A DNA stretch of 64,000 bases, from contig CALXRL010000052.1 in NCBI GenBank assembly GCA_944390735.1, positions 52,143 to 116,142 on the forward strand. The letters run 5' to 3'. Position 1 is the stretch's first letter, and each line of letters starts with the position of its first letter. The stretch comes from an uncultured Victivallales bacterium (GTDB lineage Bacteria; Verrucomicrobiota; Lentisphaeria; Victivallales; UBA1829). The translations under genes and the position numbers were made by a program. The notes beneath the pieces are model-generated. The model saw only the letters and a program-made list of their open reading frames with translations, was not told the origin of the DNA and searched no databases. Shown here one piece after another: positions 1-44,138 of this stretch.

Positions 1-3000
1 CGAATGTTCCTGCGAGATTTTTTCGGACATAATCCATAGCGGCTTCTATCGCCGTCATCCCGTTTCCTGCTTTAATTGCATTGGCTGGAACTTGTGCAAC
101 GGTTTCCTTTTTCAGCCGTTCCGCGGCTTCCTCTATTCTTGATTCTTCCTCATGTGCAGAGAGCTTCACATCATCGGTTTCTTTTTCTTCGACGTAAATA
201 TCAGCTTCCGCCTCGAATTCGGCGCCTTTGATGTAATCGCGAAGCGACGGTTTTTTCGAAATGCGGCGTGTTGATTTTTCATCTGTTTTCAGTTCCCGGA
301 TCAGTTCCGCCTGTTCCGCAATCGCCTTTTTGAGTTTTTCCTGATACGGGAAGCCTTTTGCGATCTCCTGATCGTTGTTATTGATCCGCGCCTGTATCAA
401 TGGGATTTCCTTCTTCAGATGATCCAGTTCTTCTTCCTTTGATGCGATCAGAGACGTAAGACTGTTCAGAAGTCCCGTTCCAGTTCCGATGTCGGGACTT
501 CCCTGCCGGATACTGGTTGGACCGAGATTTTCTTCCAGTTCGTAGCCAAGATTCTTGTACAAATCTTTTTCGCGGACATGGAATTTGAGTCCGATACCGT
601 TTAATTTCAGAGTAAACTGATGTCCATCCCGTTCATTGAGAGCGCGCTTGATCTGATGATCCAGCAGTTCAGCAATTTTTTTCCGATCCGCGTTCACGCG
701 GTTTCCGAGATACTCCAGCGAGATATTCTCCTTGAACGATACGTCACCATATATCCGGATGAACTCCTCGACCTTTTTGATGGCATTTTTATAAAAGTCA
801 AGATTTCGATACTGGACGATATTATCATTTTGCAGTTGTCGGATGTTCCGATTGCTCTGGTCTTTCAGGGCGTTGAGTTTTTTCACTTCAGCATCGACTT
901 CCACTTTCCGCATTGCCTTTGGATTTCCGGAAATCATTGCGGCGAAGGATGCGTAATCCATAGAGTCTTCAGATTCTTCCGCCTCCTGAGAACTGCCACC
1001 GCGTCCTCTCATAACGGACTTTATGAATTTGTCTTTTCTTGCCAGGGTCTGATAAAGTCCAGCGTCCAGGGTTTCTTCGACAGCATAATTTAATATTTCG
1101 ACAGGCGAGATGGTATTTCCCTGTCTGATGATTCGACCGTTTCTCTGCTCCATGTCAGCGGGCCGAGCGGGAGCATCCAGATGATGGAGACATGCCAGTC
1201 TTTCCTGCATGTTCACCCCGATGCCAAGACGCTCTGTTGAACCCATAATCACGCGGATTTCTCCGCGATTCACCTTTGCGAACGTCTCTTCTTTCTGTTT
1301 ATCGGTCTTGAGTTCCGTGGCAATCGCAATTTCCTCCGCTGGGATACCACGTTTGACCAGCTTCTGTTTGAGTTCCTCGTATGCATTGAATTTCCCGCCA
1401 GGAGTCTGGTACAAATCAAAGAACACCGCCTGAGCGCCCTTGACTTTTTCATATTCCTTATATTTCTTCGCAATTTCCTCTGCTGCCCGGTTCAGTTTTG
1501 ATCCGGGATCATCCGGAAGATTCTCGTCCACCAGACGCAAATCAATACTTGCTTTCTTTGCCAGAGTATGGACGATAAGGGGAACCGGATTTTTAATTTT
1601 CTCATCTTTCGGCAATCCTTCATACCACGAATAAAGATCAAGGAGGTAGTTCATAAATTTTTTCATTGACTCACTTCGTTTTATCTGAATCAACTGAGCG
1701 CCTCCGCCTTTTACAGGAGGACGAGGAACTCCCTTCAGATCTTCGGAAAGTATGATGTCAGCCACAGCGCCGAACATTTTTCCCAGTTCTTCAATATTGT
1801 TGTACTGCGCAAATCGTTCCACAATGCGGAATCGTCCGGCCGCATCAATTTCCATTCCCTGAACGGTCTGGGTAAACAGCGAAGCGAATCTGTCAAATGT
1901 TTCCACTCCGAAATCTTCCAGTGCTTTCGGGGAAAGATAGCGCACCATGTTCCAGATTTCTGTCAGGGTGTTTGTGATCGGGGTTCCGGTTGCGAAAAAG
2001 ATGTTTCTTCCTCCGGTCTTCTGCATTGTCTGCTGAATTTTCAAAAACAAGGAATACGCCCGTTTGGAACTTCCCTTGTCAAGCCCCTTCACATTCGGCA
2101 TTTTTGTTACAAATCCGTTCTTTTTATATGCGTGCGCCTCGTCAATGAAGATGGAATCGAATCCAAGTTCATCGAAATAAATCACATCATCTTTTTTTCG
2201 ATCTGCGAGAGCCTTGTTCCGTTCCTCGATTCTTTTTTTCTGTCTCTCGATATCTTTGATGATTCTTCGATTTTCATACGATCTTTCCGCCTTCAAATCC
2301 GCGATAATCTGTTCATAATCCTCAATAGCCTTGAGGTTCTGAGCCTGTTCGAACTCAGGCTTGTCCGGGATCTGATCGAAACTTGACTGTGCCATTACAA
2401 CGATATCCCAGTCGCCGGTTGCTGTTCTGCTCATGAAACGTTTTCGCTTTGCACCTTCCAGATCATTTTTGGATGCGGTGAGCACTCTTGCAGTCGGATA
2501 GAGCTTCATGATGCTTGCGGCGAACTGTTCCAACGTTGAATTCTGAACGACAATCAGGTTTTTGTGAGCCAGCTTCAACCGTTTCAGTTCCATTGCCGCT
2601 GTAATCATTTCATATGTTTTGCCGGCCCCGACGCAATGAGCGATCAACGTATTTCCCTCAAGACATCGAGACACGAGACGTTTCTGATGTTCGCGGAGTT
2701 TGAATTCCTTCCCATCCACATAATGGGCGGCGTTCGGATAGAAATCCATTTCCGGCAGCTCGTATTCCCGTTCTCTGTACACATTCATTTTTGAGTTGAA
2801 TTCTTCTTCAACAGCTTTAGCGGCCTCGGAATGGGTATTCACATAATCCTTGAATGACTGCATCATTTCCTCACGGACCTGCCGGGCCGCAAGGGAGGCT
2901 TCATTGTCTACAAGATTCTTGTCACCGACTTTCTGATAGACGATATGATTCTGAAGATTCAACGCTTTTTCCAGCACGTCGATTGCGTCGAAATTGCTTC

Positions 3001-6000
3001 CTCGGAATTTTGCTATGTCATTCCTTCTCCAGCAAGTCACGATCCAGCGGTCTGCCGCCTTGTTGTATTTGATTTTTGTTTCGACTCCGAATATGTCGTT
3101 GGCCCATGCACTGACAACCTTTTCGGGAATCCATGATGATCCCAGTTGAAATCCGATTGATCCGATCTCCTTCCGCGGCGGAAAGACTTTTTCGAGAGCC
3201 TCGACGTTTCTGAGCATTCCGTTTTCTTTTGCGATCCGGATTTTCTCAGCGATATTACCGGAAAGATATCTTCCGGCGCTTTCTATGGCGCCATTCTCCG
3301 GATTTTCGAAGAAGTTTCCTGATGCAAGGAGTTCTGCTCTTGCTTCTTCTTCCGTCATTCCTGTCAGCTCCGCAATGTATGCAGGTTGAACGGATCCGCG
3401 CATATTGACGGAAATTCTGGCGGCATCGGTTACATTTTCTGCACTTTGAGGTGTATTGACCCGGAACAGAGTCCGTTTCGTAAAAATGTCCGACTTTGAG
3501 TATACGGTCTTCTTCTTTCCGTTCTCTGCGATTTCCTTCTTGTTTTCGAGACCGCTGATTCTCAGATAATTTGGATCATCTTTCAGGATTCTGTGTTTTC
3601 TTGTATCGCTGATGTTTCCGAAATTTTTCAGATGAGCTTCATAAGCGGTATTCATCATTTTTCGGGCATGTTTCAGTTTTTCCGTTTCCCCGTCGCTTTC
3701 GAGCATCTCATGGATAACCGAATCGAATGCCCGTTTCAAACGGAGAAAGGATTTGACTTTTTCTGTCTCCCTTTCCGAAAGAGGTTTTCCGTTCTGAGTC
3801 AGTTCTTCCGTATTTCCGTCTACCGTCTGGAACAGCTTTCCGTTTTTTTCAAAGATTTCGAATTCTTTCCGTTCCTCATCCATGGAGGAATCGTCTATTT
3901 CTTCCGCAGATTTCTGTGCTCCGTAAATATTCGACCGGAGACGGTTGATTGCGTCCGGCAGTTGTTCCTCCAGTTTTCCGTTTGCAAGAAGCGTCTGGGA
4001 GTTTCCTCTGTACATGCTTCCTGTATTTGAAAGCTCTCCGAGCATCATTTCAGGATGACGGACAAAATATTCATTTACATGAACTTTTCCGGTTCCGTCG
4101 GAAGTATCTGTCTCCTGAGTATAGAGGAACGATTCTCCCTGAAAATCTGTTCCGTCCTTTTTGCGAAGGATCACAATGTCTGTAACGACGCTGGTTCCGG
4201 CATTTTTCTTGAATGCGTCTTCAGGAAGACGAATCGCTCCTACCAGGTCCGCTTTTCCGGAAAAGAATTCTCTTGCGGCGAGAGATGAATTGCTGTCAAG
4301 TGTTCCGGTGGATGTGACCGCCACCACCAGTCCGCCCGGTTTCACAGCATCGATTGCTCTTGCAAAGAAATAGTTGTGCAGACTGAATCTGGGATAATTT
4401 CTGTCATACGGTCCGTCTTTTGCGAATGGGAAATTCCCGATGACCATATCAAGGGAATTGTTCTTGACCTTTGTGTCCTGAAGTCCCCTGATTGTTACGT
4501 CGGCGAGAGGATAGAGTTTTTTCAGGATTCTTCCGCTGATGGAATCGAGTTCAACCGCGCGGAACTTTGTTTTTTCGTACAGAGAATCCGGGATAAGCCC
4601 CAGAAAATGCCCGACTCCGGCGCCGAACTCTCCGACTTTTCCTCCTTGGAATCCCAGGCGTTCAGCAAGACCCCACATATTGCGGATGACGCATCTGTCT
4701 GTATAATGGGCATTGATTGTGCTTGCGCGTGCGGCAGCGAACTCCTCCTCCGTCAGGAGTTTCTTCAACTCGTCATAATATTTGTTTCCGTATTCAAAAA
4801 CAGAAGGAAGCCCACCCCATCCGACATATCGCGCGAGCACCTTTTTTTCAGCATCCGTGGCATCCCTGTTTTCATTTTCGAGTTGTTTCAGGAGACGGAT
4901 TGCCTGGAGATTGGCATTTGTTTTTGCCGTGTCTCCTCCGGAGATGAGTTCATCCGTCTCCCGGATTCTGTGATTTGTCAGTGATTGGGTCTTCCGAACT
5001 TCGCCAGAAGTTTCAGCGGTATTCCCGGTTCCTCCGGAGCGTAATCCCTCTGGAACTCCTCTTCCGCCTTCTGATTTTCCAGCTTCTCCTGAAGTCCCAT
5101 CGGATTCGGTTCTTCCGGAAACGTCTTTTTCCACCACTGGTTGACGAACTGAACTTCCTGTTCTGTCCACCAGCTCTCTTTCAGATCGTAATCCCCGTTC
5201 CTCGTCACGGAGTCCATCGCGATTTCCTCCGCTCCTCCCGGTGGAAGATCCTGCTGATTCAGATTTTGCAGCAGACTCCATGCCTTTTCCGCCTTTTTCA
5301 GAAGATGGGTCAATATTTCTTCTGTCTGAATCAGATACAGCAGAGTTTCCTTTTCGTAGTCCGCCAGATGAATCAGCTGAGCCATTGCGAACTTGTCCTC
5401 CAGAACTCTTTCTGCTTTCGTCATTCTGCCCTCCTTTGTCTTGAACTCCCGTTTTCGGGATTTCTCCTACTATAACATGATCCCGGAGAAATTGCGAATC
5501 AGAGCTTGACTTTTCGTTTTCCAATGCTATTTTTGAATCAGAGGGGATGTCATTCATCCAGCTCTGACGTAGACCGGCTCCCAGATCGCGACGAGAAAAC
5601 GTAGGCGCGTTCTGCGTAGCTTCGGATTTGGTAGAGAACTGTCCGAACGCATCCGGTTTATTGATTTCCCATCCTGTCAACAGCCAGCTTTTCTTATTTC
5701 CATTCTCATCCAGACTCAGGATTGCTTCATACCCGTCTTTTACCAGATGAACCGTTTTATTGCCTGCCACATAACGTTCAATTTTCCCGTTTGCCAGTGC
5801 GTCGATCACATGAAGTAAGGTGTCTGTTCCGCGACGATATCCGATATGGAAAATTCCTTTTTTTTCATTTCCCCAGATCAGTGTAATATTATTTGTTCCG
5901 CCGTATTGTTCCAAATCGTTTCGCAGATTTGGTATTGTTTCCTCTTCGCTCCCTTCCACAATCTTCCGTAATGCGTCTAAAATAACGTTTTTTCTGTTTT

Positions 6001-9000
6001 CCGGAGGATTCGATACTCTTGTTTCCGCGTTTTCCGAGCGTTTTTCTACGACTTTTCTTGCAAATAGCGTTTCGATTTCGTCGATGGAGTTTCCTATGAC
6101 GGCGCGGATTTCCTGATCGAATTCTCCATCTTTATAGAGAGCGTCTTTCAAGAGTTTCAGCCAGGCGAGGAACCGTTCCAGCAGATTCGGCGTCTGCTCC
6201 CCGATTTTCCGGAGGAATGATTCTGTTCCCCCCACGCTTCCTGCGACATCGGCGATGAATTCCTCTTCCAGAGCGGCGTCATCCAGTTCGATGTAATTCC
6301 GGCTGGAATATCGTCTGTTGTAATTTTTTTTCCATTCTGCGAGCTGCTCTTCGGAAGCAAGGCGCATGACATTTTTCATCAGATTGTTGTAAGAATCCGG
6401 ATCATTCTCCCGAAGATCGTGAGTATATTCATGGAATGCAGCCGCCATCAGCGGCTTTTCGTTTTTTGTATTGAGATACAGTTTGCCTTTGTGATGGAAT
6501 CCGTCTGCCCGAAGAGTTCCCTTGAAAAATCTGACATTTTTGCCAAGTTCTTTGCGTAAGAACTCCGCCACGGCACGCTGCGAATCATCTTGCGGATCGA
6601 CAAATTCGACTTCCGCGCCATTGTAACGCTCTCGGAGAAGATGCTTCAGTCTAGTCTCTTCTTTTTCCTCTCTTGGCGTTTTCTGTGTTTCTGGTTCCGT
6701 AGTTGAAGCGGAGTCTTTTCCGGCAGTCTCCGTGTTTCTTTCCAGAATCTTCAGAGCTTCTTTTGCTTTTAGTACGCCGAGTTCCGCATCCTTGCGGACA
6801 CGATCCAGAGGCATCCGGAAATAAATGTTATCGTCCGAAGAGGTGGCCGCTTCCAGTTTTACGGTTTCAGCGGATTGTTCGTCCGGTCCATTTTCCGTTC
6901 TTCCAGAATCTCCGGCAGGATGTTCTATGGTTCTTTGTTGAAAGACTTCTGAAGAACCTCCCAGTGAATTTCCAGCTCCTTCCATTCGATTTCCCTGCTG
7001 TATGTTTTCCGGAACCTCTTTCTTCAATCCCAGCTCTTCCATCAGGATTTCTCGTTTTCCCGATCCTGCGAGATACCATTTATCCCATTCCGCCTGCTCT
7101 CTTAAAGCCTTTTTCAGGAGTTTTTCCGCGTCTTTTCCGACGTTCACTCCGAGTTTTCTTGCCGCGGCTGGATTTTTGATGGCGTCCCTGGCGGCATTGA
7201 CGGTTTCCCGGATTTCCCGGAGATGCTTTGCGGCCTGTTTCGACAACGATTTTTCGAGTTCAAGAGCGGACTCGTCGAAACCGAACAAATCGCCCTGTTC
7301 GGTTTTCGGGCGCTCTAGTGTTTTCAGAGCGTTGAGGAGCTGCCGCAATTCGTCCGTGTTCAACTCTTTTTCCTTGATTCCGACCGCTTCGATTGCCTCA
7401 TCCCCGCGAGCGATATTGGCGATTTCGGTGGCCTTTCCGTCCGGGATTTCCCCGTTTCGGTACGCGCTGTAAAGAGTGTTGCCGGCATAGCGTCCGATGG
7501 TATACCCCTGCCGTCCTTTTGCGCGGGCAAGGATTCCCTCTTTTTCGGCAGTATTTTCATCCATGTTTTCGCGGCGGACGAACTCCGCATAATCGCGGAC
7601 GTCCCCCTGCTCATCGCGGATATTGATGAGGATACCGTTTCTGCGGGCCTGATCTGCGGTTACGCCGTCGGCTTCCCGGTCGATGATGGCGTTGACGTTT
7701 TCGACGTTGTTTTTCCGAGCCAGATCGAATCGGTGATGCCCGTTAACGACAATTTTTTTCCCGTTCTTGTCTTCCCAGACGTAGAGATTTCCGGCGGTTT
7801 TGGGATCCCATGTTCCGCCGATTTTATTGGATTCGTCAACCCCGGAAACTTTGTCCGCTCTGCTTTTAAATTGGAACCGTTGCGGATCGATCTGCAAATC
7901 CTTAACCGGAATACTCTGGACCGAGTTCCCGCCGTTGACGCCGATTACATTTTTTGCCTGTTCTTCCGGCGACACTTCCTTGTCGGACGGATCGGAGGAA
8001 TCCGGAAACGGTTCCAGATTTTTCAGAGGTTTCATCCCATCCATCAGATTTTCTTTTCCCTGAGAGTCAGCGGCCGCGTCCTGTTGAATTTTTTTTGCTT
8101 CTGTGCTGTTCAGGACCCGTTTCAGATCGCGAGCTGTGTCTTTGCGGAATTTTGCAAGAGTTGCCGCAAATCCAGGCGCGCGCAGAATTGCCGGGGTGAT
8201 TCCGAATGAGACGGCCATCTGCATAAACTCTTGAGTGCTGGGCAGGGTCTGTTCGATTCGTTCTGCGAGAGTACCGTTGCTGTCGATACCTGCGACGCCG
8301 CGCAAAATATCTCCGACATACTCTTCCGCGATTTCTCCGACAGTTCCGTTCCATGCTTTTGTCCGGTTCAGAGTCCGGACGAGGCGCTGTGCCGGGAGCT
8401 TGCTCATGAGTTTCCGGTATCCCTGAACGACCTTTCTGCTGGCCCTGACGGGCAGCGCGAGTCGGAACAGTCCACCTGTTGCTTCGGAAACGACTTCGAT
8501 TCCGGTATCTGCAATTCCCGAGGACATTTCCGCACCGATATTGACATTGCGGTTGAAGGTTGGATTTCCCTGTTCATCCTCTCCGACAGTTGCGTTTGCG
8601 ATTCTCTGAGCGCCGGAAGCAAGTCCTTGAGTTGCGATCAGGGGAGAGGTTGCAGCAGTTGTTTTTGCGAAGTCCTTGAAAGCGTTTTTTGCAGACTTTC
8701 CGAAATTTCCCGGGTGGAATTTCATCAACCCTTTTGCGGTGTTTTTCCCGGCGGCTTTTGCGGCGCTTTTTCCGGCGGCTTTTGCGGCACCTTTTGCGAT
8801 TGCGCCGACGGTCCCACCAGTCAGAGCGAAATCCGCCATGAACGGCAGACTTTTTGCGGTGATTTCCCCTACGCCACCCATAAAAGAATTTCCGCGCAAC
8901 GCTTTTTCCTGTTCGTCATTGAGGAAGGCGTTGACGGTGTTCAAGTCGTTGTGATACGCGTTTTGGGCCCATGTTTCGATTTGTTGTTCGGGAGCATCGG

Positions 9001-9883
9001 GCTTTTGCCTTTTGAGTTCGGCGCGGTAATAATCGATGCCGAGTTCAGCCCGTTTTGCGGCTTGCGTCACTCCAATATTTTCAGCGAATCCAAAGGCGCC
9101 CCCGACGATCGGGATATTCTCCGAATCAGTGAACATTTCCCCGAAATTTTCCCAGAACCCTCGTTTTTCATTTGAAAGCTCAGCCGGATTGAGTCTGGTG
9201 ACGGAATCCCCGGGGTTCAGGTTCATACTTTTTCCGAGATTTTCGTCTTTAAGTCTGCGGTCGAGCAGGCTCTCGATTGTTTTATCGATTCCGGTCTCGG
9301 AAACGAGGCGGTTCCAGAAACTTTTTTTTGATAAGCTGTATGGTTTCAGGAGATTGATTTTGTTTCCGAGGGAACCAGCTCTTCTGCTGTTTTCCCCCAT
9401 CAGTTTCTGACGTTCGTCCTCCAGAGAATCGGCTTGCAGATTAAGCCCCCGGTCCCGGAGAATTTTCTGCTGGCCCTCGATATTGGCGATCCGTTCGGAA
9501 GCGGCGAGGATTTCGTCCGCGGCTCTGTGCTGTTCGCGGTTGAATCCGAGTTCTTTTGCTTTTCGGTAGTTTTCTTCAGCTTCCTTGAATTGGTCCAGGA
9601 AGAGATGATCCTTGTAGAGCTGCTTTCCGGTTGCGGTGTCGATATAGGCTCCGGATCCGGGGAAATATTTTGCTTTTCCGGAAGAGAGGAGATTTTCTGC
9701 ATATAATTTTGCCTGCCGGTCGTTTTCCTCTGCGGCGTTCCGCATATTGATGGAAAGGAGGGTGTCATCGAGGCCCTGAGTGGAGAAATTCTGATTGACC
9801 TGATCGAGAGCTTTTCTGGAAGCCTCCGGATCGAGCAAAAGGGAAGCCGTTTCTGACGGCGAGAAATCATTGAATATTGGCAT
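1..9883 (-). CDS. Giant polyvalent protein, DarB-like. Domain order: unknown N-terminal region, ParB-like nuclease, HExxH metallopeptidase-like module, low-complexity linker, N6-adenine DNA methyltransferase, SNF2/DEAH helicase, coiled-coil tail. At least 3,294 aa; the 3' end lies outside the window.
   Basis: Manual reverse-strand translation starts at ATG 9883-9881, with AAGGAG 7 nt upstream. I found no in-frame stop down to position 2. All motifs share one phase (first codon base = 1 mod 3): VNGHHRFDLA (G codon at 7741), HEYTH (6433-6419), MTase motif I GAGVGHF (~4626-4604), motif IV GNFPF (4438-4424), GAGKT (2629-2615), DEAH (2143-2132) and QRNGRIIRQGN (~1147-1114). The ORF is missing from the track, apparently because no stop lies inside the window. 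Confidence 0.9.
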   Translation of the reverse strand, partial: MPIFNDFSPSETASLLLDPEASRKALDQVNQNFSTQGLDDTLLSINMRNAAEENDRQAKLYAENLLSSGKAKYFPGSGAYIDTATGKQLYKDHLFLDQFKEAEENYRKAKELGFNREQHRAADEILAASERIANIEGQQKILRDRGLNLQADSLEDERQKLMGENSRRAGSLGNKINLLKPYSLSKKSFWNRLVSETGIDKTIESLLDRRLKDENLGKSMNLNPGDSVTRLNPAELSNEKRGFWENFGEMFTDSENIPIVGGAFGFAENIGVTQAAKRAELGIDYYRAELKRQKPDAPEQQIETWAQNAYHNDLNTVNAFLNDEQEKALRGNSFMGGVGEITAKSLPFMADFALTGGTVGAIAKGAAKAAGKSAAKAAGKNTAKGLMKFHPGNFGKSAKNAFKDFAKTTAATSPLIATQGLASGAQRIANATVGEDEQGNPTFNRNVNIGAEMSSGIADTGIEVVSEATGGLFRLALPVRASRKVVQGYRKLMSKLPAQRLVRTLNRTKAWNGTVGEIAEEYVGDILRGVAGIDSNGTLAERIEQTLPSTQEFMQMAVSFGITPAILRAPGFAATLAKFRKDTARDLKRVLNSTEAKKIQQDAAADSQGKENLMDGMKPLKNLEPFPDSSDPSDKEVSPEEQAKNVIGVNGGNSVQSIPVKDLQIDPQRFQFKSRADKVSGVDESNKIGGTWDPKTAGNLYVWEDKNGKKIVVNGHHRFDLARKNNVENVNAIIDREADGVTADQARRNGILINIRDEQGDVRDYAEFVRRENMDENTAEKEGILARAKGRQGYTIGRYAGNTLYSAYRNGEIPDGKATEIANIARGDEAIEAVGIKEKELNTDELRQLLNALKTLERPKTEQGDLFGFDESALELEKSLSKQAAKHLREIRETVNAARDAIKNPAAARKLGVNVGKDAEKLLKKALREQAEWDKWYLAGSGKREILMEELGLKKEVPENIQQGNRMEGAGNSLGGSSEVFQQRTIEHPAGDSGRTENGPDEQSAETVKLEAATSSDDNIYFRMPLDRVRKDAELGVLKAKEALKILERNTETAGKDSASTTEPETQKTPREEKEETRLKHLLRERYNGAEVEFVDPQDDSQRAVAEFLRKELGKNVRFFKGTLRADGFHHKGKLYLNTKNEKPLMAAAFHEYTHDLRENDPDSYNNLMKNVMRLASEEQLAEWKKNYNRRYSSRNYIELDDAALEEEFIADVAGSVGGTESFLRKIGEQTPNLLERFLAWLKLLKDALYKDGEFDQEIRAVIGNSIDEIETLFARKVVEKRSENAETRVSNPPENRKNVILDALRKIVEGSEEETIPNLRNDLEQYGGTNNITLIWGNEKKGIFHIGYRRGTDTLLHVIDALANGKIERYVAGNKTVHLVKDGYEAILSLDENGNKKSWLLTGWEINKPDAFGQFSTKSEATQNAPTFSRRDLGAGLRQSWMNDIPSDSKIALENEKSSSDSQFLRDHVIVGEIPKTGVQDKGGQNDESRKSSGGQVRNGSADSSGGLRKGNSAVSDSDRRNIDPSSEKGGKGMESAAKSESAGSSTGRSGGNRDGLRDEERGLRSERELVDRTGSSVRQPVVEKDVSGRTESDGTSGEAGKSEGGRGVPEGLRSGGTGNTAETSGEVRKTQSLTNHRIRETDELISGGDTAKTNANLQAIRLLKQLENENRDATDAEKKVLARYVGWGGLPSVFEYGNKYYDELKKLLTEEEFAAARASTINAHYTDRCVIRNMWGLAERLGFQGGKVGEFGAGVGHFLGLIPDSLYEKTKFRAVELDSISGRILKKLYPLADVTIRGLQDTKVKNNSLDMVIGNFPFAKDGPYDRNYPRFSLHNYFFARAIDAVKPGGLVVAVTSTGTLDSNSSLAAREFFSGKADLVGAIRLPEDAFKKNAGTSVVTDIVILRKKDGTDFQGESFLYTQETDTSDGTGKVHVNEYFVRHPEMMLGELSNTGSMYRGNSQTLLANGKLEEQLPDAINRLRSNIYGAQKSAEEIDDSSMDEERKEFEIFEKNGKLFQTVDGNTEELTQNGKPLSERETEKVKSFLRLKRAFDSVIHEMLESDGETEKLKHARKMMNTAYEAHLKNFGNISDTRKHRILKDDPNYLRISGLENKKEIAENGKKKTVYSKSDIFTKRTLFRVNTPQSAENVTDAARISVNMRGSVQPAYIAELTGMTEEEARAELLASGNFFENPENGAIESAGRYLSGNIAEKIRIAKENGMLRNVEALEKVFPPRKEIGSIGFQLGSSWIPEKVVSAWANDIFGVETKIKYNKAADRWIVTCWRRNDIAKFRGSNFDAIDVLEKALNLQNHIVYQKVGDKNLVDNEASLAARQVREEMMQSFKDYVNTHSEAAKAVEEEFNSKMNVYREREYELPEMDFYPNAAHYVDGKEFKLREHQKRLVSRCLEGNTLIAHCVGAGKTYEMITAAMELKRLKLAHKNLIVVQNSTLEQFAASIMKLYPTARVLTASKNDLEGAKRKRFMSRTATGDWDIVVMAQSSFDQIPDKPEFEQAQNLKAIEDYEQIIADLKAERSYENRRIIKDIERQKKRIEERNKALADRKKDDVIYFDELGFDSIFIDEAHAYKKNGFVTKMPNVKGLDKGSSKRAYSLFLKIQQTMQKTGGRNIFFATGTPITNTLTEIWNMVRYLSPKALEDFGVETFDRFASLFTQTVQGMEIDAAGRFRIVERFAQYNNIEELGKMFGAVADIILSEDLKGVPRPPVKGGGAQLIQIKRSESMKKFMNYLLDLYSWYEGLPKDEKIKNPVPLIVHTLAKKASIDLRLVDENLPDDPGSKLNRAAEEIAKKYKEYEKVKGAQAVFFDLYQTPGGKFNAYEELKQKLVKRGIPAEEIAIATELKTDKQKEETFAKVNRGEIRVIMGSTERLGIGVNMQERLACLHHLDAPARPADMEQRNGRIIRQGNTISPVEILNYAVEETLDAGLYQTLARKDKFIKSVMRGRGGSSQEAEESEDSMDYASFAAMISGNPKAMRKVEVDAEVKKLNALKDQSNRNIRQLQNDNIVQYRNLDFYKNAIKKVEEFIRIYGDVSFKENISLEYLGNRVNADRKKIAELLDHQIKRALNERDGHQFTLKLNGIGLKFHVREKDLYKNLGYELEENLGPTSIRQGSPDIGTGTGLLNSLTSLIASKEEELDHLKKEIPLIQARINNNDQEIAKGFPYQEKLKKAIAEQAELIRELKTDEKSTRRISKKPSLRDYIKGAEFEAEADIYVEEKETDDVKLSAHEEESRIEEAAERLKKETVAQVPANAIKAGNGMTAIEAAMDYVRKNLAGTF
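1114..2701 (-). other. SNF2/DEAH-box helicase domain (N and C lobes) of the giant protein
   Basis: LREHQKRLV...AHCVGAGKTYEM (motif I), FDSIFIDEAHAYKK (motif II), FATGTPITN (motif III), IMGSTERLGIGVNMQ and DMEQRNGRIIRQGN (motif VI). Confidence 0.9.
4037..4965 (-). other. N6-adenine DNA methyltransferase domain of the giant protein
   Basis: NHRIRETDELISGG...LARYVGWGGL leader. Motif I is VGEFGAGVGHFLG and motif IV is DMVIGNFPF. Downstream come HNYFFARAIDAVKPGGLVVAVTS and AIRLPEDAFKKNAGTSVVTDIVILRK. Confidence 0.85.
4978..5424 (-). CDS. Nested +1-frame ORF (148 aa) inside the linker-coding part of the giant gene. Hypothetical; translation unproven.
   Basis: It is listed in the ORF track. AAAGGAGGG lies 4 nt upstream of the ATG, and a TAG TAG pair sits 14 codons upstream in this frame. 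The product has a globular-looking composition (amphipathic helices, WWTEQEVQFVNQWWKK). The overlapped main frame is G/S/R/E low complexity. Confidence 0.35.
   Translation of the reverse strand: MTKAERVLEDKFAMAQLIHLADYEKETLLYLIQTEEILTHLLKKAEKAWSLLQNLNQQDLPPGGAEEIAMDSVTRNGDYDLKESWWTEQEVQFVNQWWKKTFPEEPNPMGLQEKLENQKAEEEFQRDYAPEEPGIPLKLLAKFGRPNH
6300..6560 (-). other. HExxH (zincin-like) module of the giant protein
   Basis: LMAAAFHEYTHDLRENDPDSY, with HEYTH at 6433-6419. The assignment rests on this motif alone. Confidence 0.4.
7600..7915 (-). other. ParB/sulfiredoxin-like nuclease domain of the giant protein (about aa 657-760)
   Basis: Translated sequence IPVKDLQIDPQRFQFKSRAD...LYVWEDKNGKKIVVNGHHRFDLARKNN, containing the (D/N)GHHR signature of ParB-like nuclease domains. 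Confidence 0.65.
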
Positions 9884-10136
9884 ATTGGATCTCCTTTTTG
9901 AATGATACGTGCCAATAAAAACGAGGAAAATGGAGATTTCAGACACGAAAGGAGTGCCAACGATAGCTCATTCTTTCGCGCGCGCGAATCAAAGGTTATC
10001 AGAACGGTATATCATCCTCCAGTCCATCGCACGTCATGTTAAATGCCAGGAGGAGAAGGGCTTCTCTTAAGAGTTCCGGCATTCGGACGAAGTTGAATTT
10101 TCTCTGAGAGAAATCATAAACAGCGAGGCCGCCGAT

Positions 10137-13100
10137 GTGCACTATGCGAATCCGCTGAACCGGGCGGATTCGTTGAAGCATTGGTGGATTGCTCCCGGAA
10201 CAGGGGCGAAAGCTCTGCCCGGGAACGGCATTGAAATCATTGCTTCCAAAGGAGCTGGAGGAAAATTTCAGGGTGTGGTCCGCGGAATTCCGGCGGAACC
10301 GCTGCGTGGAAAGTTTGTAAGAGTTTCGGTGGAGGCGAAAGCGGAAAACCTTCAGCCTGTCGGCAATACGAAAACCGGCGGCAAATTCATGTTTACGGTC
10401 CGGACCCCGAAAGAGACCTTCTATCCGCAGAAGAACCCGGATCTCGGAAGTTATGACTGGAAAACCTATTCTCTGGATTTTGACGTTCCCCGTGATTGTG
10501 ACAAAGTCGATTTCGGACTCGGAATCGAACATGCTTCCGGCAGGATTCTGTTCCGGAATCTCAAAGTGGAAATTCTGGCGTCCACTCCGAAAGTCGATGC
10601 CCACTATTTCAATGCTCTGAATCGCTCGAACTCTCTGGAAAACTGGTGGGTCGCGCCCGGGACAAAGGCGAAGGCGCTGCTCGGAACGGGAATCGAGATC
10701 ACCGCGCCGAAGGCGGCCAAGGGAAATTACCGTGGCGTGATCCGTGGAATTCCGGCGAAACCTCTTCAGGGGAAGCGGGTGCGCGTTTCGGTGGAGGCCA
10801 AGGCGGAAAACCTCCAGCCCGTCGGCGATACGAAAACCGGCGGAAAGTTCATGTTCACCCTCCAGACTCCGAAGGAGACCTTCTATCCGCAGCAGAACCC
10901 GGGAACCGGTACCTACGACTGGAAAACCTTCTCCATTGAATACACGGTTCCCCGCGACTGCAGCAAGGCCGATTTTGTCCTCGGCATCGAACGGGCTTCC
11001 GGAACCATTCTCTTCCGGAATCTGAAAGTGGAGATTCTGGACACCCTTCTGGATCTCTCCCCTTTGATGAACATGGGGTATGCCGATCCGAAAGCCGGGG
11101 ACGGAAAGGGCGGCTGGTCCGATCAGGGTCCCGACAACGATGCCGCCAAATTTGTCTTTACCCAGAAACGCTATGCCAATGTTCCGTTCAAGGCGGTGGA
11201 TCCTGCCGGAAACAACGGAAAAAGCGTGATGGCCTTCAAATCCAGCAATTTTTCCCAGGGACTTCCGGAAGCGGTGCTGAATCTGGAAAGCATCTCCGCC
11301 GAGGGCCGTTATCTTTATCTTCTTCATACTCTTACGTATGGCTCAAAGGACCGGATCGGGACAATCGAAGTGATCGGGAAAAACGGGAAAAAGCAGACCA
11401 TTGAAGTCAAAGGCGGCCGCGATGTCAATGACTGGTGGATGGCGCAGCCGGGGCCGAATGCGCATCCGGCGTCCATCTGGACCAATGCCAGCGGCGGAAT
11501 CGTGGGCGTGTTTGCCTCGGTTTTCCCGTTGAAGAAGGAGATCGGAGTGATCCGTTCGATCCGGTTTGTTCCCCGGTCCGAAACCTCCGTCTGGATTGTT
11601 CTTGCGGCGACCCTTTCCTTCAACGCCTATGAATTCCCGAAGGCGGAAATTGAAACGATGCAGGAAAACGCGGTCTGGAAAAAATTCCCCTTTCCGTCGC
11701 GTCTCGGTGTGATTCCCGGTTCGGCTTTGGATCTCGGAAAGGCGGAGCGCGCGCCGGCGGGAGCGTTCGGTCGTGTCATTGTCAATAAAGACGGAAAATT
11801 CGCATTTGAAAAGAATCCGGAAAAAGCGGTCCGCTTTTTCTCCGCTCTGTTCCCGAATGCGATCATCCAGCCGAACAGTTCCGCTGGAAAACGGGTCTTT
11901 CCGGACACGTTGTATTCGAAGTCTGTCCGCAATCAGAAAGAGAGAATCCGCGACTACATCCTCGCTTACCGTCACAAAGGCTACAACATGCTGCGGATGC
12001 ACATGATCGAAGGGGAACTTGCGGAACGCAAGGGGCTGGATTTCCCGAAAGATGTCTTTGACAATTTCTTCTATGCGATCAAATGTATGAAGGACAACGG
12101 GATTTATCTGAATCTGGATGTCGCCGCCAGCCATCTCGGCTACTATCCCGGCATCACCTGGGCGGACTGGACCTGGAGAAAGGATCACAAGGACGCCAAG
12201 AAATTCATCTATTTCGATCAGGATATCAGGGAGAACTGGAAAGCCGGAGCAAGAAAAGTGCTTCTGACCGTGAATCCGTATACGAAGATGCGCCTGATTG
12301 ACGATCCGGTACTGGTCTCTCTGATCGGCTTCAACGAACAGGAATTCGTGTTCAGCACCTCCCGGGAGATTCCGCAGGCGATGCCCCGCTGGAAGGAATT
12401 CCTCCGGAAAAAATACGGGTCCTTCGGAAAGCTGAAGGCGGCGTGGAACGTCAAGAACAACTGGAAAAATTTTGACGATCTCCCCGTTTTCCGCGGCAGC
12501 GACATGATGGAAACCTCTCCCCGCGGACGCGACGCCTATGAGTTCACAAGGATGATGGAACGGGAGATCTTCGATTTCTACCATTCCTATCTGCGGGAGC
12601 TTGGCTGGAAGGGTCCGGTCACGAATTTCAACATGGGGAAATCCATTCAGTACGTGATGGCTCGCGAACCTGCGGAATTTGTGGCAATGAACTCCTATCA
12701 TGCGCATCCGAGCAACTACATTCAGCCCGGATCGACCATCGACCAGAGCAGTTCCATCGCCACCTCCGCGAATGTCGCCCGGGGATTCTATGCGTATCAG
12801 ATGCCCGGCAAGCCCTATGTCATTACTGAACAGGGACATGTCTTCTGGAACCGCTACCGGTATGAACAGGCGTTTGTGACCGATGGCTACGGAGCGCTTC
12901 AGGGAGTGGACGGCATTACGGCATTCATCAGTCAGATGTATCCTCCGCACGGGAAAGTCATGCATCCGTTCGGAGGCGTCTACGACCCGATCATGTATGC
13001 CTGCGAGTTTCTTGCCTACTTCATCTACGCCCGCGGTGACGTGAGGGAAGGGGATGTGGCGTACCGTGTGGTCCTGAACGAACCCGAAGTGCTGGAAAAC

Positions 13101-13886
13101 TATGCCTATCGGTGGGGACTCGGATCGGAACAGACGCGTCTTCTTCTGCTCGGGCGCTTCTCCGTGGAGAGCACGAAAGACGGGAAGCCCGTCTTCCCGC
13201 TCCGGAAGAACGAAGTGGTGCTTAAACGCACCGGTGGCAGCGCGGTTCTGACCTCCGCGCTCGGCACGGCCGGATTCACCAGCATCATCGACGGCGGAAA
13301 ATCGGTGTTTGATCTGGATGCACTTGTGCGCGATCTGAAGAAGCGCGGCGTGATTCCGGCGTCCAACCGGACCCATGCGTCCGAGGAGATTTTCGAAAGC
13401 TGCACCGGGGAGCTGTATCTCGATGCGAAAAAGAAATTCATGAGCATCAATACGAAACGGCTCCAGGGCGTCTGCGCGCTGGCGGGAACGAAGGTGAAAC
13501 TGCCCTCGTTTGAAATCCGGGAGATGACCCGGAACGGAAATCTGGCCATTGTGTCGATCGACAACGCCCCCGGTCTGGAGCAGTCGAAGCATCTGATGCT
13601 GGTCTACGCCACCGATGCCCTGAATTCAGGCATGGTCTTCAACGACTCCTCGCGGCGGGTGATGCAGAAACTGGGCAAACTGCCGGTTCTGTTTGAGACG
13701 GGCGTCTTCTCCGTTGCCATTCGGAACGGCAATGCGGACCGTCTGAAGGTGTTTGCCGTCGACCTCAACGGACGCCGTCAGGGAGAGATTCCCGCCCGGG
13801 CGGAAAACGGTGTTCTGCATCTCCGGGTCGATACGGCAAAGCTGCCCGGCGGACCGGCGGTCTTTTTCGAAATTGCGGAAAAATAA
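10137..13886 (+). CDS. Large glycoside-hydrolase-like protein. It has two tandem CBM-like modules, a beta-sandwich region and a clan GH-A-like TIM barrel. Probably 5'-truncated.
   Basis: 1249-aa ORF with a GTG start and no signal peptide. It shares GDGKGGWSDQGPDND, YNMLRMH, GFNEQEF (NE acid/base-like) and VITEQG (nucleophile-like) with the paralog at 34882-38163, which does have a signal peptide. Confidence 0.8.
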   Translation: MHYANPLNRADSLKHWWIAPGTGAKALPGNGIEIIASKGAGGKFQGVVRGIPAEPLRGKFVRVSVEAKAENLQPVGNTKTGGKFMFTVRTPKETFYPQKNPDLGSYDWKTYSLDFDVPRDCDKVDFGLGIEHASGRILFRNLKVEILASTPKVDAHYFNALNRSNSLENWWVAPGTKAKALLGTGIEITAPKAAKGNYRGVIRGIPAKPLQGKRVRVSVEAKAENLQPVGDTKTGGKFMFTLQTPKETFYPQQNPGTGTYDWKTFSIEYTVPRDCSKADFVLGIERASGTILFRNLKVEILDTLLDLSPLMNMGYADPKAGDGKGGWSDQGPDNDAAKFVFTQKRYANVPFKAVDPAGNNGKSVMAFKSSNFSQGLPEAVLNLESISAEGRYLYLLHTLTYGSKDRIGTIEVIGKNGKKQTIEVKGGRDVNDWWMAQPGPNAHPASIWTNASGGIVGVFASVFPLKKEIGVIRSIRFVPRSETSVWIVLAATLSFNAYEFPKAEIETMQENAVWKKFPFPSRLGVIPGSALDLGKAERAPAGAFGRVIVNKDGKFAFEKNPEKAVRFFSALFPNAIIQPNSSAGKRVFPDTLYSKSVRNQKERIRDYILAYRHKGYNMLRMHMIEGELAERKGLDFPKDVFDNFFYAIKCMKDNGIYLNLDVAASHLGYYPGITWADWTWRKDHKDAKKFIYFDQDIRENWKAGARKVLLTVNPYTKMRLIDDPVLVSLIGFNEQEFVFSTSREIPQAMPRWKEFLRKKYGSFGKLKAAWNVKNNWKNFDDLPVFRGSDMMETSPRGRDAYEFTRMMEREIFDFYHSYLRELGWKGPVTNFNMGKSIQYVMAREPAEFVAMNSYHAHPSNYIQPGSTIDQSSSIATSANVARGFYAYQMPGKPYVITEQGHVFWNRYRYEQAFVTDGYGALQGVDGITAFISQMYPPHGKVMHPFGGVYDPIMYACEFLAYFIYARGDVREGDVAYRVVLNEPEVLENYAYRWGLGSEQTRLLLLGRFSVESTKDGKPVFPLRKNEVVLKRTGGSAVLTSALGTAGFTSIIDGGKSVFDLDALVRDLKKRGVIPASNRTHASEEIFESCTGELYLDAKKKFMSINTKRLQGVCALAGTKVKLPSFEIREMTRNGNLAIVSIDNAPGLEQSKHLMLVYATDALNSGMVFNDSSRRVMQKLGKLPVLFETGVFSVAIRNGNADRLKVFAVDLNGRRQGEIPARAENGVLHLRVDTAKLPGGPAVFFEIAEK
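10140..11042 (+). repeat. Intragenic tandem duplication: two 462-nt (154-aa) CBM-like modules
   Basis: HYANPLNRADSLKHWWIAPGTGAKAL...ILFRNLKVEIL aligns with HYFNALNRSNSLENWWVAPGTKAKAL...ILFRNLKVEIL. The HY codons at 10140 and 10602 are exactly 462 nt apart. Confidence 0.85.
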
Positions 13887-13945
13887 AGGTTCGATGGTTG
13901 CAAAATAAAATCCCCGTCTTATCTTATTATGAGAAGACGGGAAAC

Positions 13946-15016
13946 ATGATCCAGGAAACAGACAGTGTTATGGCAGAGAGAGCAAGTTCAACAGCGGAAT
14001 ACATGAAGATCCGGCGCTATGTGCTCAACCGGATCCACCGGGCGGGCGGAAAGGCGCTTCAGCTGCCGACCGCCCAGGAGCTCGCGAAACAGTTCGGGTG
14101 CAGCCGGCCCACCGTCAGCAAGGCGATGAAAACATTGACCGATGACGGCTATGTGATCGGCCGTCCCGGGATCGGCTCGTTCATCAACCCCAACATCGAG
14201 GGAAGCCAGAAGGGGGGGAACATGGATGGAATGCCGATCATCGGAATCATTTTCGGTGACGGGATGGTCGTGCATTACGAGATCTTTTTCGGAGCGGTCC
14301 TTGCCCGGGCCCTGGAAGAGGTGATTCATCGTCCGGCGGTTCTTCACATCATCAATCTGACTTCGACGAATCATGAGAAGATTGTCAAGGAGATTCTCGC
14401 GGAGGATCTGGACGGATTGATCTGGGAGGGACCGGTCGTCGATGCGAAAACCATTCTTTCTCTGCGTCGTCACGGTCTGCCCGTGGTTGTCATGAAGAGC
14501 GAGCCGCTCCCCGGATGCGACTGCGTCTACTTCGACATGGATCTGCTCGGCACGGAAATCGCCCGCCGTCTCCTTGCGGAAAAGCGGAAAAATGTCGTGT
14601 TTCTGGCGGATCGCAAGCCGTGGAATGCCGCCCGGCATTCCCTGCTCCGCACCTTTGCGGAGGCGGGGCACCCCTTGAATGAAAAACTTTTTCTGGACGG
14701 CTGTGAAACCGGACTTGCGCGTCTGCGGGAGTTCCTGGAGCTCGGGGTGCCGGTGGATGCCGTGGTCAATCCGCTCTTCCTGGTGGGAAAGGTGCTGGAT
14801 ATCTTTGATTCCCTCGGCATCGACCGCCGGGAGAAGTGCCGACTGGTCAACAATGGAATCTATCGGGAAAACGTTCCGGTGCCCGGCGGACTCTCCTATG
14901 AGCCGCCGATCCGCGAATATGTCGCGGCGGCCGTGAACCGGGTCTTCGCCCTGATTGCGGACAAGACGCTTCCGCCCGAACAGATTTCCATTCCGGTTCC
15001 GCTTGTGGAAAGCTGA
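13946..15016 (+). CDS. Transcriptional regulator with a GntR-type HTH and a LacI/PBP1-type sugar-binding domain
   Basis: YMKIRRYVLNRIHRAGGKALQLPTAQELAKQFGCSRPTVSKAMKTLTDDGYVIGRPGIGSFI, followed by a periplasmic-binding-like fold. The track's TTG start at 13898 overlaps a hairpin at 13912-13941. ATG 13946 or 13970 is more likely. Confidence 0.8.
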   Translation: MIQETDSVMAERASSTAEYMKIRRYVLNRIHRAGGKALQLPTAQELAKQFGCSRPTVSKAMKTLTDDGYVIGRPGIGSFINPNIEGSQKGGNMDGMPIIGIIFGDGMVVHYEIFFGAVLARALEEVIHRPAVLHIINLTSTNHEKIVKEILAEDLDGLIWEGPVVDAKTILSLRRHGLPVVVMKSEPLPGCDCVYFDMDLLGTEIARRLLAEKRKNVVFLADRKPWNAARHSLLRTFAEAGHPLNEKLFLDGCETGLARLREFLELGVPVDAVVNPLFLVGKVLDIFDSLGIDRREKCRLVNNGIYRENVPVPGGLSYEPPIREYVAAAVNRVFALIADKTLPPEQISIPVPLVES

Positions 15017-15123: not shown

Positions 15124-15747
15124 TCAAAGGGCCCGCTGAACTCCGACCACCACCCCTTTCAGCGGGAGATCCTTCAGAGAGCACTCTTCTGTTTTTCCGC
15201 TGGCGTCGGTAAGCGAGAGATGATCGTCTTTCACTTCCGCGCAGCTTTTCAGAATGGACTCCCCATTTTCCTCCGTGACGAGAATATCGCCTTTTTTCAC
15301 GGACTGAGGATGTTTCTTCACGATGGCGATATCGCCGTCGAGGATGCCGAATTCCTTCATATCGCTGCCATGGACGCGGAGGGCGAAAAGATTGCGGCAG
15401 TCGGTATGGAGCGTTTTTTCAAACAGGGATGCGTCGCAGTAGAGCTCCTTTTGAACGCCCGAATAGAGTGAGGTGTCGCCTCCGTGACCGTCGTAGACCG
15501 GAATGGCGCGCAGTCCCGCCGGATGGCGCATTTTCCGTTTCGGCCCTGTCAGGGCGATGCTCCGCGCCTTCGAACTGCGGCTGATGCAGTTCTTTTTCTG
15601 AAGCGCCCGCAGATGGGCGAATACCGTTGACGTTTTGATCTGGAAATGTTCCGCGATTTCATACACCGTCGGCGACATTCCCTCCGCAGTGATGAAATCT
15701 TCAATATAAACGAGAATTCCGCGCTGTTTCTCCGTCAAGCCTTTCAT
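15124..15747 (-). CDS. lexA: LexA repressor (S24 peptidase family)
   Basis: N-terminal winged HTH (LTEKQRGILVYIEDFITAEGMSPTVYEIAEHF). C-terminal S24 domain with the Ser motif RVHGSDM and Lys in IAIVKK. The product is 207 aa. Confidence 0.9.
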   Translation of the reverse strand: MKGLTEKQRGILVYIEDFITAEGMSPTVYEIAEHFQIKTSTVFAHLRALQKKNCISRSSKARSIALTGPKRKMRHPAGLRAIPVYDGHGGDTSLYSGVQKELYCDASLFEKTLHTDCRNLFALRVHGSDMKEFGILDGDIAIVKKHPQSVKKGDILVTEENGESILKSCAEVKDDHLSLTDASGKTEECSLKDLPLKGVVVGVQRAL

Positions 15748-44064: not shown

Positions 44065-44138
44065 TGGCTGCCCAATAAGGATTCGAACCTCAACAAACTG
44101 AACCAGAATCAGTTGTGCTACCGTTACACCATTGGGCA
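44065..44138 (-). tRNA. tRNA-Gln (anticodon CUG), CCA encoded
   Basis: 74 nt: TGCCCAA-TG-GTGT-AACGGTA-GCAC-A-ACTGA-TTCTGGT-TCAGT-TTGT-TGAGG-TTCGAAT-CCTTA-TTGGGCA-G-CCA. All four stems pair. The U1:A72 pair and G73 are typical of bacterial tRNA-Gln. Confidence 0.9.

Follow-up and report, generated by a model that had tools for sequence, protein, structure and literature searches.

The 64,000-nucleotide (nt) stretch of contig CALXRL010000052.1 from an uncultured Victivallales bacterium (hereafter the window) carries on its minus strand a giant gene for a putative polyvalent protein, in which a second, much smaller open reading frame (ORF) is nested in the +1 frame, immediately ahead of the part that encodes a methyltransferase module. 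Our analysis indicates that this is very probably a conserved dual-coding segment, made up of a small same-strand gene and of the giant frame, which reads the same DNA as a disordered linker. Comparison with related loci establishes that both reading frames are maintained: one encodes a small folded protein on which purifying selection acts, and the other is a stop-free, disordered reading of the giant gene.

An earlier note on this DNA had pointed out that two same-strand frames are open over 5424..4978. This was borne out, since a 148-codon +1 ORF, whose product contains the peptide VLEDKFAMAQLIHLADYEK, lies entirely within a main frame of >3,294 codons (Table 1). The landmarks described with it are all in place: the TAG TAG doublet, the Shine-Dalgarno (SD) sequence followed by N4-ATG, the AATCAC hexamer repeated 11 nt apart, and an A4 run. 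By these sequence signals the nested gene appears to have its own start, AAAGGAGGG-N4-ATG, and the ATG of every complete nested homologue is likewise preceded, at a distance of approximately 4 to 9 nt, by a GGAG/AAGGAG-type motif, with a nested-frame stop 1 to 42 codons upstream. The AAGGAGG heptamer occurs just twice in the 9,966 nt of the giant gene. Strong SD sequences coupled to start codons that open an ORF of at least 30 codons are confined to the beginnings of the giant and nested genes and to two internal Met codons of the nested ORF (5385 and 5217), which sit behind weaker GGAGGA motifs.

The openness of the +1 frame is by itself weak, non-decisive evidence: with the linker amino acids held fixed, 1 to 15% of synonymous shuffles leave it open over at least 162 codons in this T-poor segment. 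Codon statistics are decisive for a coding +1 frame. The frame-specific codon comparison proposed by the earlier note was run in 50-codon windows over the whole gene, and the +1 frame beat the main frame by codon likelihood only at 5503-5113; the overlap thus favors the +1 frame, unlike the rest of the gene. The synonymous-codon score of the nested frame (0.099) compares with 0.121 ± 0.038 for true-frame windows elsewhere and with -0.050 ± 0.046 (maximum, 0.057) for off-frame windows, whereas simulated coding by the main frame only yielded a +1 score of -0.009 ± 0.030 and none of 3000 simulations reached the observed value. Inside the overlap the main frame scored 0.040, low for a true frame (P=0.018). 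Its shadow-like appearance, already remarked upon from the letters, was therefore confirmed: the score is off-frame-like, the linker is G/S/R/E-rich, and the enrichment in TCT, TCA, TTA, and CTA codons is a real excess.

A database search of the 148-amino-acid (aa) product, another of the checks suggested beforehand, found real relatives. Exhaustive phmmer against 1.84 billion representatives retrieved eight small proteins (P0054-P0061; E values from 4e-15 to 7e-7, 31-43% identity), and these came only from that search, as a word-indexed protein search returned just the nested protein itself. Two independent ENA contigs code for an identical 148-aa protein. The relatives have in common the motifs L.HLAEF.KE.LL.LI, LPPGG, and EWT..E...N.WW..TFP.E.NP. 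An AlphaFold model built on a 9-sequence alignment predicts an eight-helix domain with a predicted local distance difference test score (pLDDT) of 89 and a predicted template modeling score (pTM) of 0.78; together with the relatives, this confident all-helical model bears out the globular character first ascribed to the +1 product. The composition of the two readings differs accordingly. Over seven lineages, hydrophobic residues account for 36-44% of the nested frame and 12-24% of the main frame, and aromatic residues for ∼9% and ∼0%, respectively; in the window, disorder-promoting residues make up 59% of the nested and 84% of the main-frame product, and the main-frame linker, which includes the stretch ...GLRDEERGLR..., has no aromatic residues. 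The nested protein of the window had no significant match to any Pfam, NCBIfam, or PHROGs family, no sequence match in PDB, and no fold match when Foldseek was run against PDB and BFVD. Similarly, tblastn with the nested product, P0056, and P0058 yielded no match in annotated phages and plasmids. Two family members hit the Pfam profile TnpV (PF14198) over profile positions 23-68 of 111, namely P0059 (26.8 bits; E=5.5e-6) and P0056 (20.7 bits; E=4e-4), with a Pfam gathering cut-off of 27 bits. P0059, the best of them, thus stays below the cut-off over ∼45 residues, and the window protein and 8 other members had no TnpV match, so that the N-terminal half of the family can be called TnpV-like only as a borderline case. 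Collectively, these results support the assignment of the +1 product to a genuine family of foldable proteins, some of which are free-standing.

Further nested loci were located with a back-translated motif scan. As the earlier note had proposed, homologous loci were compared, and the +1 frame was found conserved and open, with 0 stops, in 8 further lineages. In all of them the linker of a through-running frame, G/S/R/E-rich and located just before the methyltransferase, ends in NHRIG.DD..GGD.SKIKANL...YVGWGGL, and the family ORF is found within this linker, shifted by +1 relative to the through-running frame. The nine nested lineages are thus the window and loci L018/19, L025/29, L026/27, L030, L040-42, L043, L044, and L045, and the same frame relation holds in >15 contigs from different projects and assemblers. 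The giant ORFs of related lineages reach >3,490, >3,641, and >4,464 codons. Nested ORFs span 99-159 codons among relatives and end 2-98 nt ahead of NHRI, and the nested proteins of the nine lineages have diverged to 23-43% identity. Their identity correlates with that of the methyltransferase start (rho=0.48, P=0.03). The N-terminal modules upstream of the linker vary among lineages, which argues that the nested gene and the methyltransferase travel as a unit. Distant methyltransferase homologues (L001-L017) have disordered stretches before the methyltransferase, with no family ORF in them. In the L040-L045 contigs (Logan, ENA), automatic annotation breaks the giant ORF where the nested gene lies: the small ORF is called as a gene of its own, and the giant gene resumes downstream of it, sometimes with an overlap of 49-58 nt. 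As a consequence, the proteins of this clade deposited in databases lack their N-terminal portion, and the fusion goes unnoticed.

Every family member with usable DNA, other than the free-standing ones, is nested as in the window; P0054 was left out of this tally because its 608-bp contig returned no DNA. The free-standing members are P0057 (L020), P0060 (L023/24), P0064 (L048), and P0065 (L046); their genomic surroundings are unrelated, and they have 1-5 stops in the frame equivalent to the giant frame. P0060, P0064, and P0065 are 144-aa genes, and the N-termini of the nested L026 protein and free-standing P0060 coincide. P0065 directly follows genes for an 891-aa SNF2 helicase and a >2,465-aa SACS/HATPase protein (L046 1..20435); this locus also carries helix-turn-helix, PycTM, HipA (HipA_C), and integrase (rve) genes and has the appearance of a defence or mobile island. 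P0057, a chromosomal protein of 405 aa (L020 5543..6760), carries the family domain at its C-terminus and has MreC, penicillin-binding protein (PBP2), and GH97 genes as neighbors. A hydrophobic, putatively membrane-spanning stretch occurs near its N-terminus.

At the amino-acid level, purifying selection targets the nested frame, and selection on the main frame serves mainly to exclude stops. Between the close relatives L030 and L025, the overlap shows 7 differences, 6 of them at nested codon position 3 and 0 at position 2, with 2 nested versus 7 main-frame amino-acid changes (P=0.004). Between L043 and L045, differences at main-frame positions 1/2/3 number 37/29/25 inside the overlap versus 15/19/75 in the flanking methyltransferase (chi-square P=2e-8). 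In seven lineages, the nucleotides at nested positions 1/2/3 show identities of 0.51/0.57/0.43. Consistently with this codon-position pattern of purifying selection, the nested frame scores true-frame-like and the main frame off-frame-like in L026, L030, L025, L040, and L044 (e.g., 0.255 versus -0.912 in L044). Both frames have 0 stops over the overlap in all nine diverged lineages. For the main frame, 2.7-10.9 stops were expected from each nested protein and the local codon usage (P per lineage from <2e-4 to 0.044), and 6.4 in the window linker (P=4e-4). Conserved-looking linker motifs, e.g., QPVVE.NVSGR.ES, are the shadow of N.WW..TFP.E.NP in the nested frame. The substitution pattern, codon usage, and stop avoidance hence place the amino-acid constraint on the nested frame and leave the main frame constrained mainly to stay open.

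These data suggest how the segment would be decoded. The small protein would be translated independently, by internal initiation at its own SD sequence and ATG on the mRNA of the giant gene, while the ribosomes of the giant gene would read the overlap in frame 0, one base earlier, as a G/S/R/E-rich, aromatic-free, disordered tether joining the variable N-terminal modules to the methyltransferase-helicase part. Most likely, the linker originated when upstream modules became fused to a preexisting pair of small gene and methyltransferase gene by out-of-frame read-through. We infer that the small gene is the older reading and the linker the derived, overprinted one, because the former has genome-like codon usage, a globular fold, and free-standing and TnpV-like relatives, and its partner frame is disordered. 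Of the explanations put forward in the earlier note, a genuine overprinted gene is supported by the protein family, nesting in nine lineages, substitutions that follow the nested frame, and a main frame held open. The same evidence speaks for a linker derived from an old gene through out-of-frame reading, and the two are views of one story. The small protein always adjoins the methyltransferase/SNF2 module, and P0065 lies next to a SNF2 helicase; on these grounds it could tentatively be a partner or regulator of this module, an assignment that we regard as rather doubtful. More broadly, it is likely that a family of giant polyvalent genes has long used the alternative frame of an embedded small gene as a near-unconstrained interdomain linker, the DNA cost of which is borne by the second, folded product. 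The small protein would be made independently, possibly to serve the methyltransferase/SNF2 module as its dedicated partner or regulator and possibly with its synthesis tuned by ribosome traffic on the giant ORF, and its family would be almost invisible in databases because gene finders remove or misplace it.

Several points weigh against the dual-coding interpretation. Translation of either frame through the segment is predicted from sequence. The purine-rich composition of the linker favors both GGAG motifs and an open +1 frame (openness P up to 0.15). The codon alignment behind the seven-lineage identities was guided by the nested protein, and the nine lineages share ancestry, their per-lineage stop probabilities being not fully independent. 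All relatives come from metagenomic contigs and none from annotated phage or plasmid collections, and the nested protein has neither a Pfam/NCBIfam family nor a sequence match in PDB or a fold match in PDB or BFVD.

Free-standing relatives and genome-like nested codon usage would also suit an older independent gene that survives as a relic, i.e., a real small gene from an ancestral three-gene array (N-terminal, small, and methyltransferase genes) that was fused, with only one frame functional today. Either the nested gene would no longer be translated or the read-through linker would be accidental, the event being recent or neutral, and the near absence of amino-acid constraint on the main-frame linker fits such a relic. 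However, both frames are intact in nine lineages whose nested proteins are down to 23-43% identity, substitutions still spare the nested amino-acid sequence, and the main frame lacks the several stops expected in each lineage. Either dead frame would have decayed over such divergence, which makes a relic unlikely. Another alternative is that the +1 frame is open by chance or as a side effect of how the main frame is conserved and composed, with +1 similarity merely mirroring conserved linker DNA. The sequence is purine-rich and T-poor (T, ∼15-18%), which depletes stops; the +1 frame is open in up to 15% of the shuffles, and an antisense ORF is open as well. This explanation, which the earlier note had also listed, is nonetheless excluded for practical purposes by homologues that stand free where the main frame is closed, the high-confidence predicted fold, substitution periodicity that matches the nested frame, a +1 codon score above all main-only simulations, and the same codon-usage switch in five other lineages; we rate its probability as very low.

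Two further explanations would place the helical domain in-line in the giant protein. By recoding, ribosomes would shift +1 into the nested frame and back out, for example by hopping over the TGA by means of the repeated AATCAC. The repeat does flank the nested stop, the A4 run lies upstream of the nested start, and the domain sits exactly between two modules. This would nevertheless require two shifts although the zero frame is open throughout, and recoding would not need a stop-free main frame. Every complete nested ORF opens with a conserved ATG behind an SD sequence and has stops in its own frame shortly upstream, and free-standing homologues start at the same Met. The nested stops fall at variable distances from NHRI in unrelated contexts, and no entry or exit motif, slippery or hop, is common to the lineages. 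The AATCAC and A4 elements were accordingly rejected as recoding signals for want of conservation, and the GAAAAC-AAGGAG stretch corresponds to homologous DNA around the SD sequence. Recoding, as raised in the earlier note, was thus not borne out and is quite improbable. An assembly or sequencing artefact, with two compensating indels that hide an in-frame helical domain, might be entertained given that the window possibly derives from a metagenome assembly. The identical product on two independent contigs, the recurrence of the frame relation across projects and assemblers, stops that flank the nested frame on both sides, and a zero frame whose full openness has a chance probability of ∼4e-4 leave it with hardly any credibility.

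The arrangement favored here, a small gene nested in a giant frame that is read as a linker, is reminiscent of comS of Bacillus subtilis, a 46-codon gene embedded in a different frame of the giant surfactin synthetase gene srfA, where it overlaps a folded enzymatic domain. In both cases a very large bacterial gene with many modules harbors, in an alternative frame, a small gene that has a start of its own, and comS is cotranscribed with srfA. In our case, however, the nested gene, which specifies a folded domain, is longer (99-159 codons), the host frame reads as a disordered, near-unconstrained linker, and the nested frame is apparently the older one. Phages also harbor nested genes, such as lambda Rz1 inside Rz (+1 frame) and phiX174 B inside A and E inside D. 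They share with the window a gene that lies wholly inside another, on the same strand but in a different frame, within a mobile element, and one product that is disordered or compositionally biased. Whereas in the classic situation the short nested ORF is usually the novelty, here the small gene would be ancestral and the disordered tether reading of the long gene would be the novel one, derived from gene fusion. Viral overprinting in general is treated in PMC8227390, PMC6195259, and bioRxiv 10.1101/229690.

Polyvalent proteins of phages and conjugative elements have been described by Iyer et al. (2017; PMC5512222). The giant protein resembles them as a multi-domain giant with a methyltransferase, an SNF2 helicase, and N-terminal modules that vary and are exchanged among lineages. 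In that paper, a term search returned nothing on overlapping or nested genes, linkers, or TnpV; the embedded gene goes beyond the published description of the class. TnpV of Tn4451/Tn4453-type transposons has been postulated to be excision related by its similarity to lambda Xis (PMC3158075). It is likewise a small helical protein on mobile elements, to whose profile the N-terminal helices of two family members align; however, besides the subthreshold scores and the short aligned stretch, the conserved C-terminal half of our family (EWT...WW..TFP.E.NP) falls outside the aligned TnpV region. Literature searches retrieved no published description of the nested-gene/linker arrangement. Same-strand nesting and overprinting are already known; what sets this case apart is the long overlap, with a constrained, apparently ancestral nested gene and a near-unconstrained polyvalent linker as the host frame.

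Bacteria and their mobile elements offer few examples of long overlapping genes on the same strand, and these are often contested. The nine lineages, free-standing controls, frame-specific substitutions, and confident fold make this an unusually clean comparative case. It also suggests a route to gene fusion, in which out-of-frame read-through of an intervening gene yields a disordered linker while the intervening gene is kept. For annotation, gene finders that drop the small gene or cut the giant one leave the small protein family under-represented and the giant proteins truncated in databases. The segment further offers a natural system for studying the sequence freedom of disordered linkers and internal initiation inside a heavily translated ORF.

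The giant gene is a single minus-strand frame that reaches from 9967 to the left window edge without a stop. Its product is predicted to run from N-terminal modules through the linker to an N6-adenine methyltransferase module and an SNF2 helicase. SNF2-rel, ResIII, and Helicase_C matches exceed the Pfam cut-offs, Eco57I-type methylase and LPD14 matches are weak and subthreshold, and ParB-like and zincin-like HExxH motifs were read by eye in the N-terminal modules. Sequence searches and alignments identified N12-class methylases as homologues of the methyltransferase, which opens with NHRIRETDELISGGD...YVGWGG. With repressor and replication-initiator-like genes nearby, these features point to a mobile-element polyvalent protein as defined in PMC5512222. 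The module directly upstream of the linker had no Pfam match here. By BLASTP (query residues 3-173) it recurs at 45-70% identity in ∼25 other proteins, P0012, P0018, P0020, and P0029-P0052 among them, with varying partner domains (PF18760, PF18798, PF09979, PF06381, and PF18825); it is a shuffled polyvalent-protein module.

Table 1. Coordinates of the dual-coding segment and associated features of the giant gene
Feature	Position	Strand	Description
Giant gene (putative polyvalent protein)	2..9883	-	5′ end complete, 3′ end beyond the window edge; ATG at 9883; >3,294 codons; from open frame and translation, Pfam, and homologues
SD sequence of giant gene (AAGGAG)	9891..9896	-	7 nt before ATG 9883
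Conserved module directly upstream of linker (IWGNEKKG...WLLTGWEINKPDAFG)	5483..5995	-	BLASTP
TAG TAG, nested frame	5467..5472	-	Upstream limit of the +1 open stretch, 14 codons before ATG
Main-frame linker of giant protein	4976..5470	-	G/S/R/E-rich; from translation, composition, off-frame-like codon usage; 0 stops
SD sequence of nested gene (AAAGGAGGG)	5429..5437	-	4 nt before ATG 5424; main-frame reading K-G-G
Nested +1-frame gene	4978..5424	-	ATG 5424 to TGA 4980-4978; 148 codons plus TGA; 162 codons stop to stop
Methyltransferase module start (NHRIRETDELISGGDTAKTNANLQAIRLLKQLENENRDATDAEKKVLARYVGWGG...)	3998..4975	-	Begins 2 nt past nested stop; N12-class methylase alignments
Second AAGGAGG	4641..4647	-	Main-frame codons Q-G-G-K of the methyltransferase; no start codon within reach

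Other open stretches in the giant gene were considered as coding candidates and rejected. An antisense ORF of 166 codons at 4975..5475 (+) is codon-aligned with the nested frame, in which TTA, CTA, and TCA codons are rare; the antisense frame has 0-2 stops in related lineages and is not conserved open, and the ORF is a by-product and not a third gene. Three minus-strand stretches in the +2 frame of the giant gene, at 8573..8069, 8915..8576, and 3575..3257 (168, 113, and 106 codons, respectively), had no codon-usage support in sliding windows. In two windows at 6073..6043 (-), the +2 frame was marginally ahead of the main frame by 0.03-0.08 per codon, which is probably noise in an A-rich stretch.

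The giant gene is divergent from two plus-strand ORFs, 10137..13886, which encodes a 1,249-aa protein without a family match, and 13898..15016, with PHROG replication-initiator or DnaD-like matches. A cI/LexA-like repressor ORF follows at 15124..15747 (-). From ∼16.1 kb onward the genes look chromosomal (FAD oxidoreductase, ABC transporters, and DUF4153), which suggests an edge of an integrated element near 15.8-16.1 kb. The AT skew flips at ∼9.8 kb. The sole tRNA in the window, tRNA-Gln(CTG), is located at 44065..44138 (-), far from the element edge.

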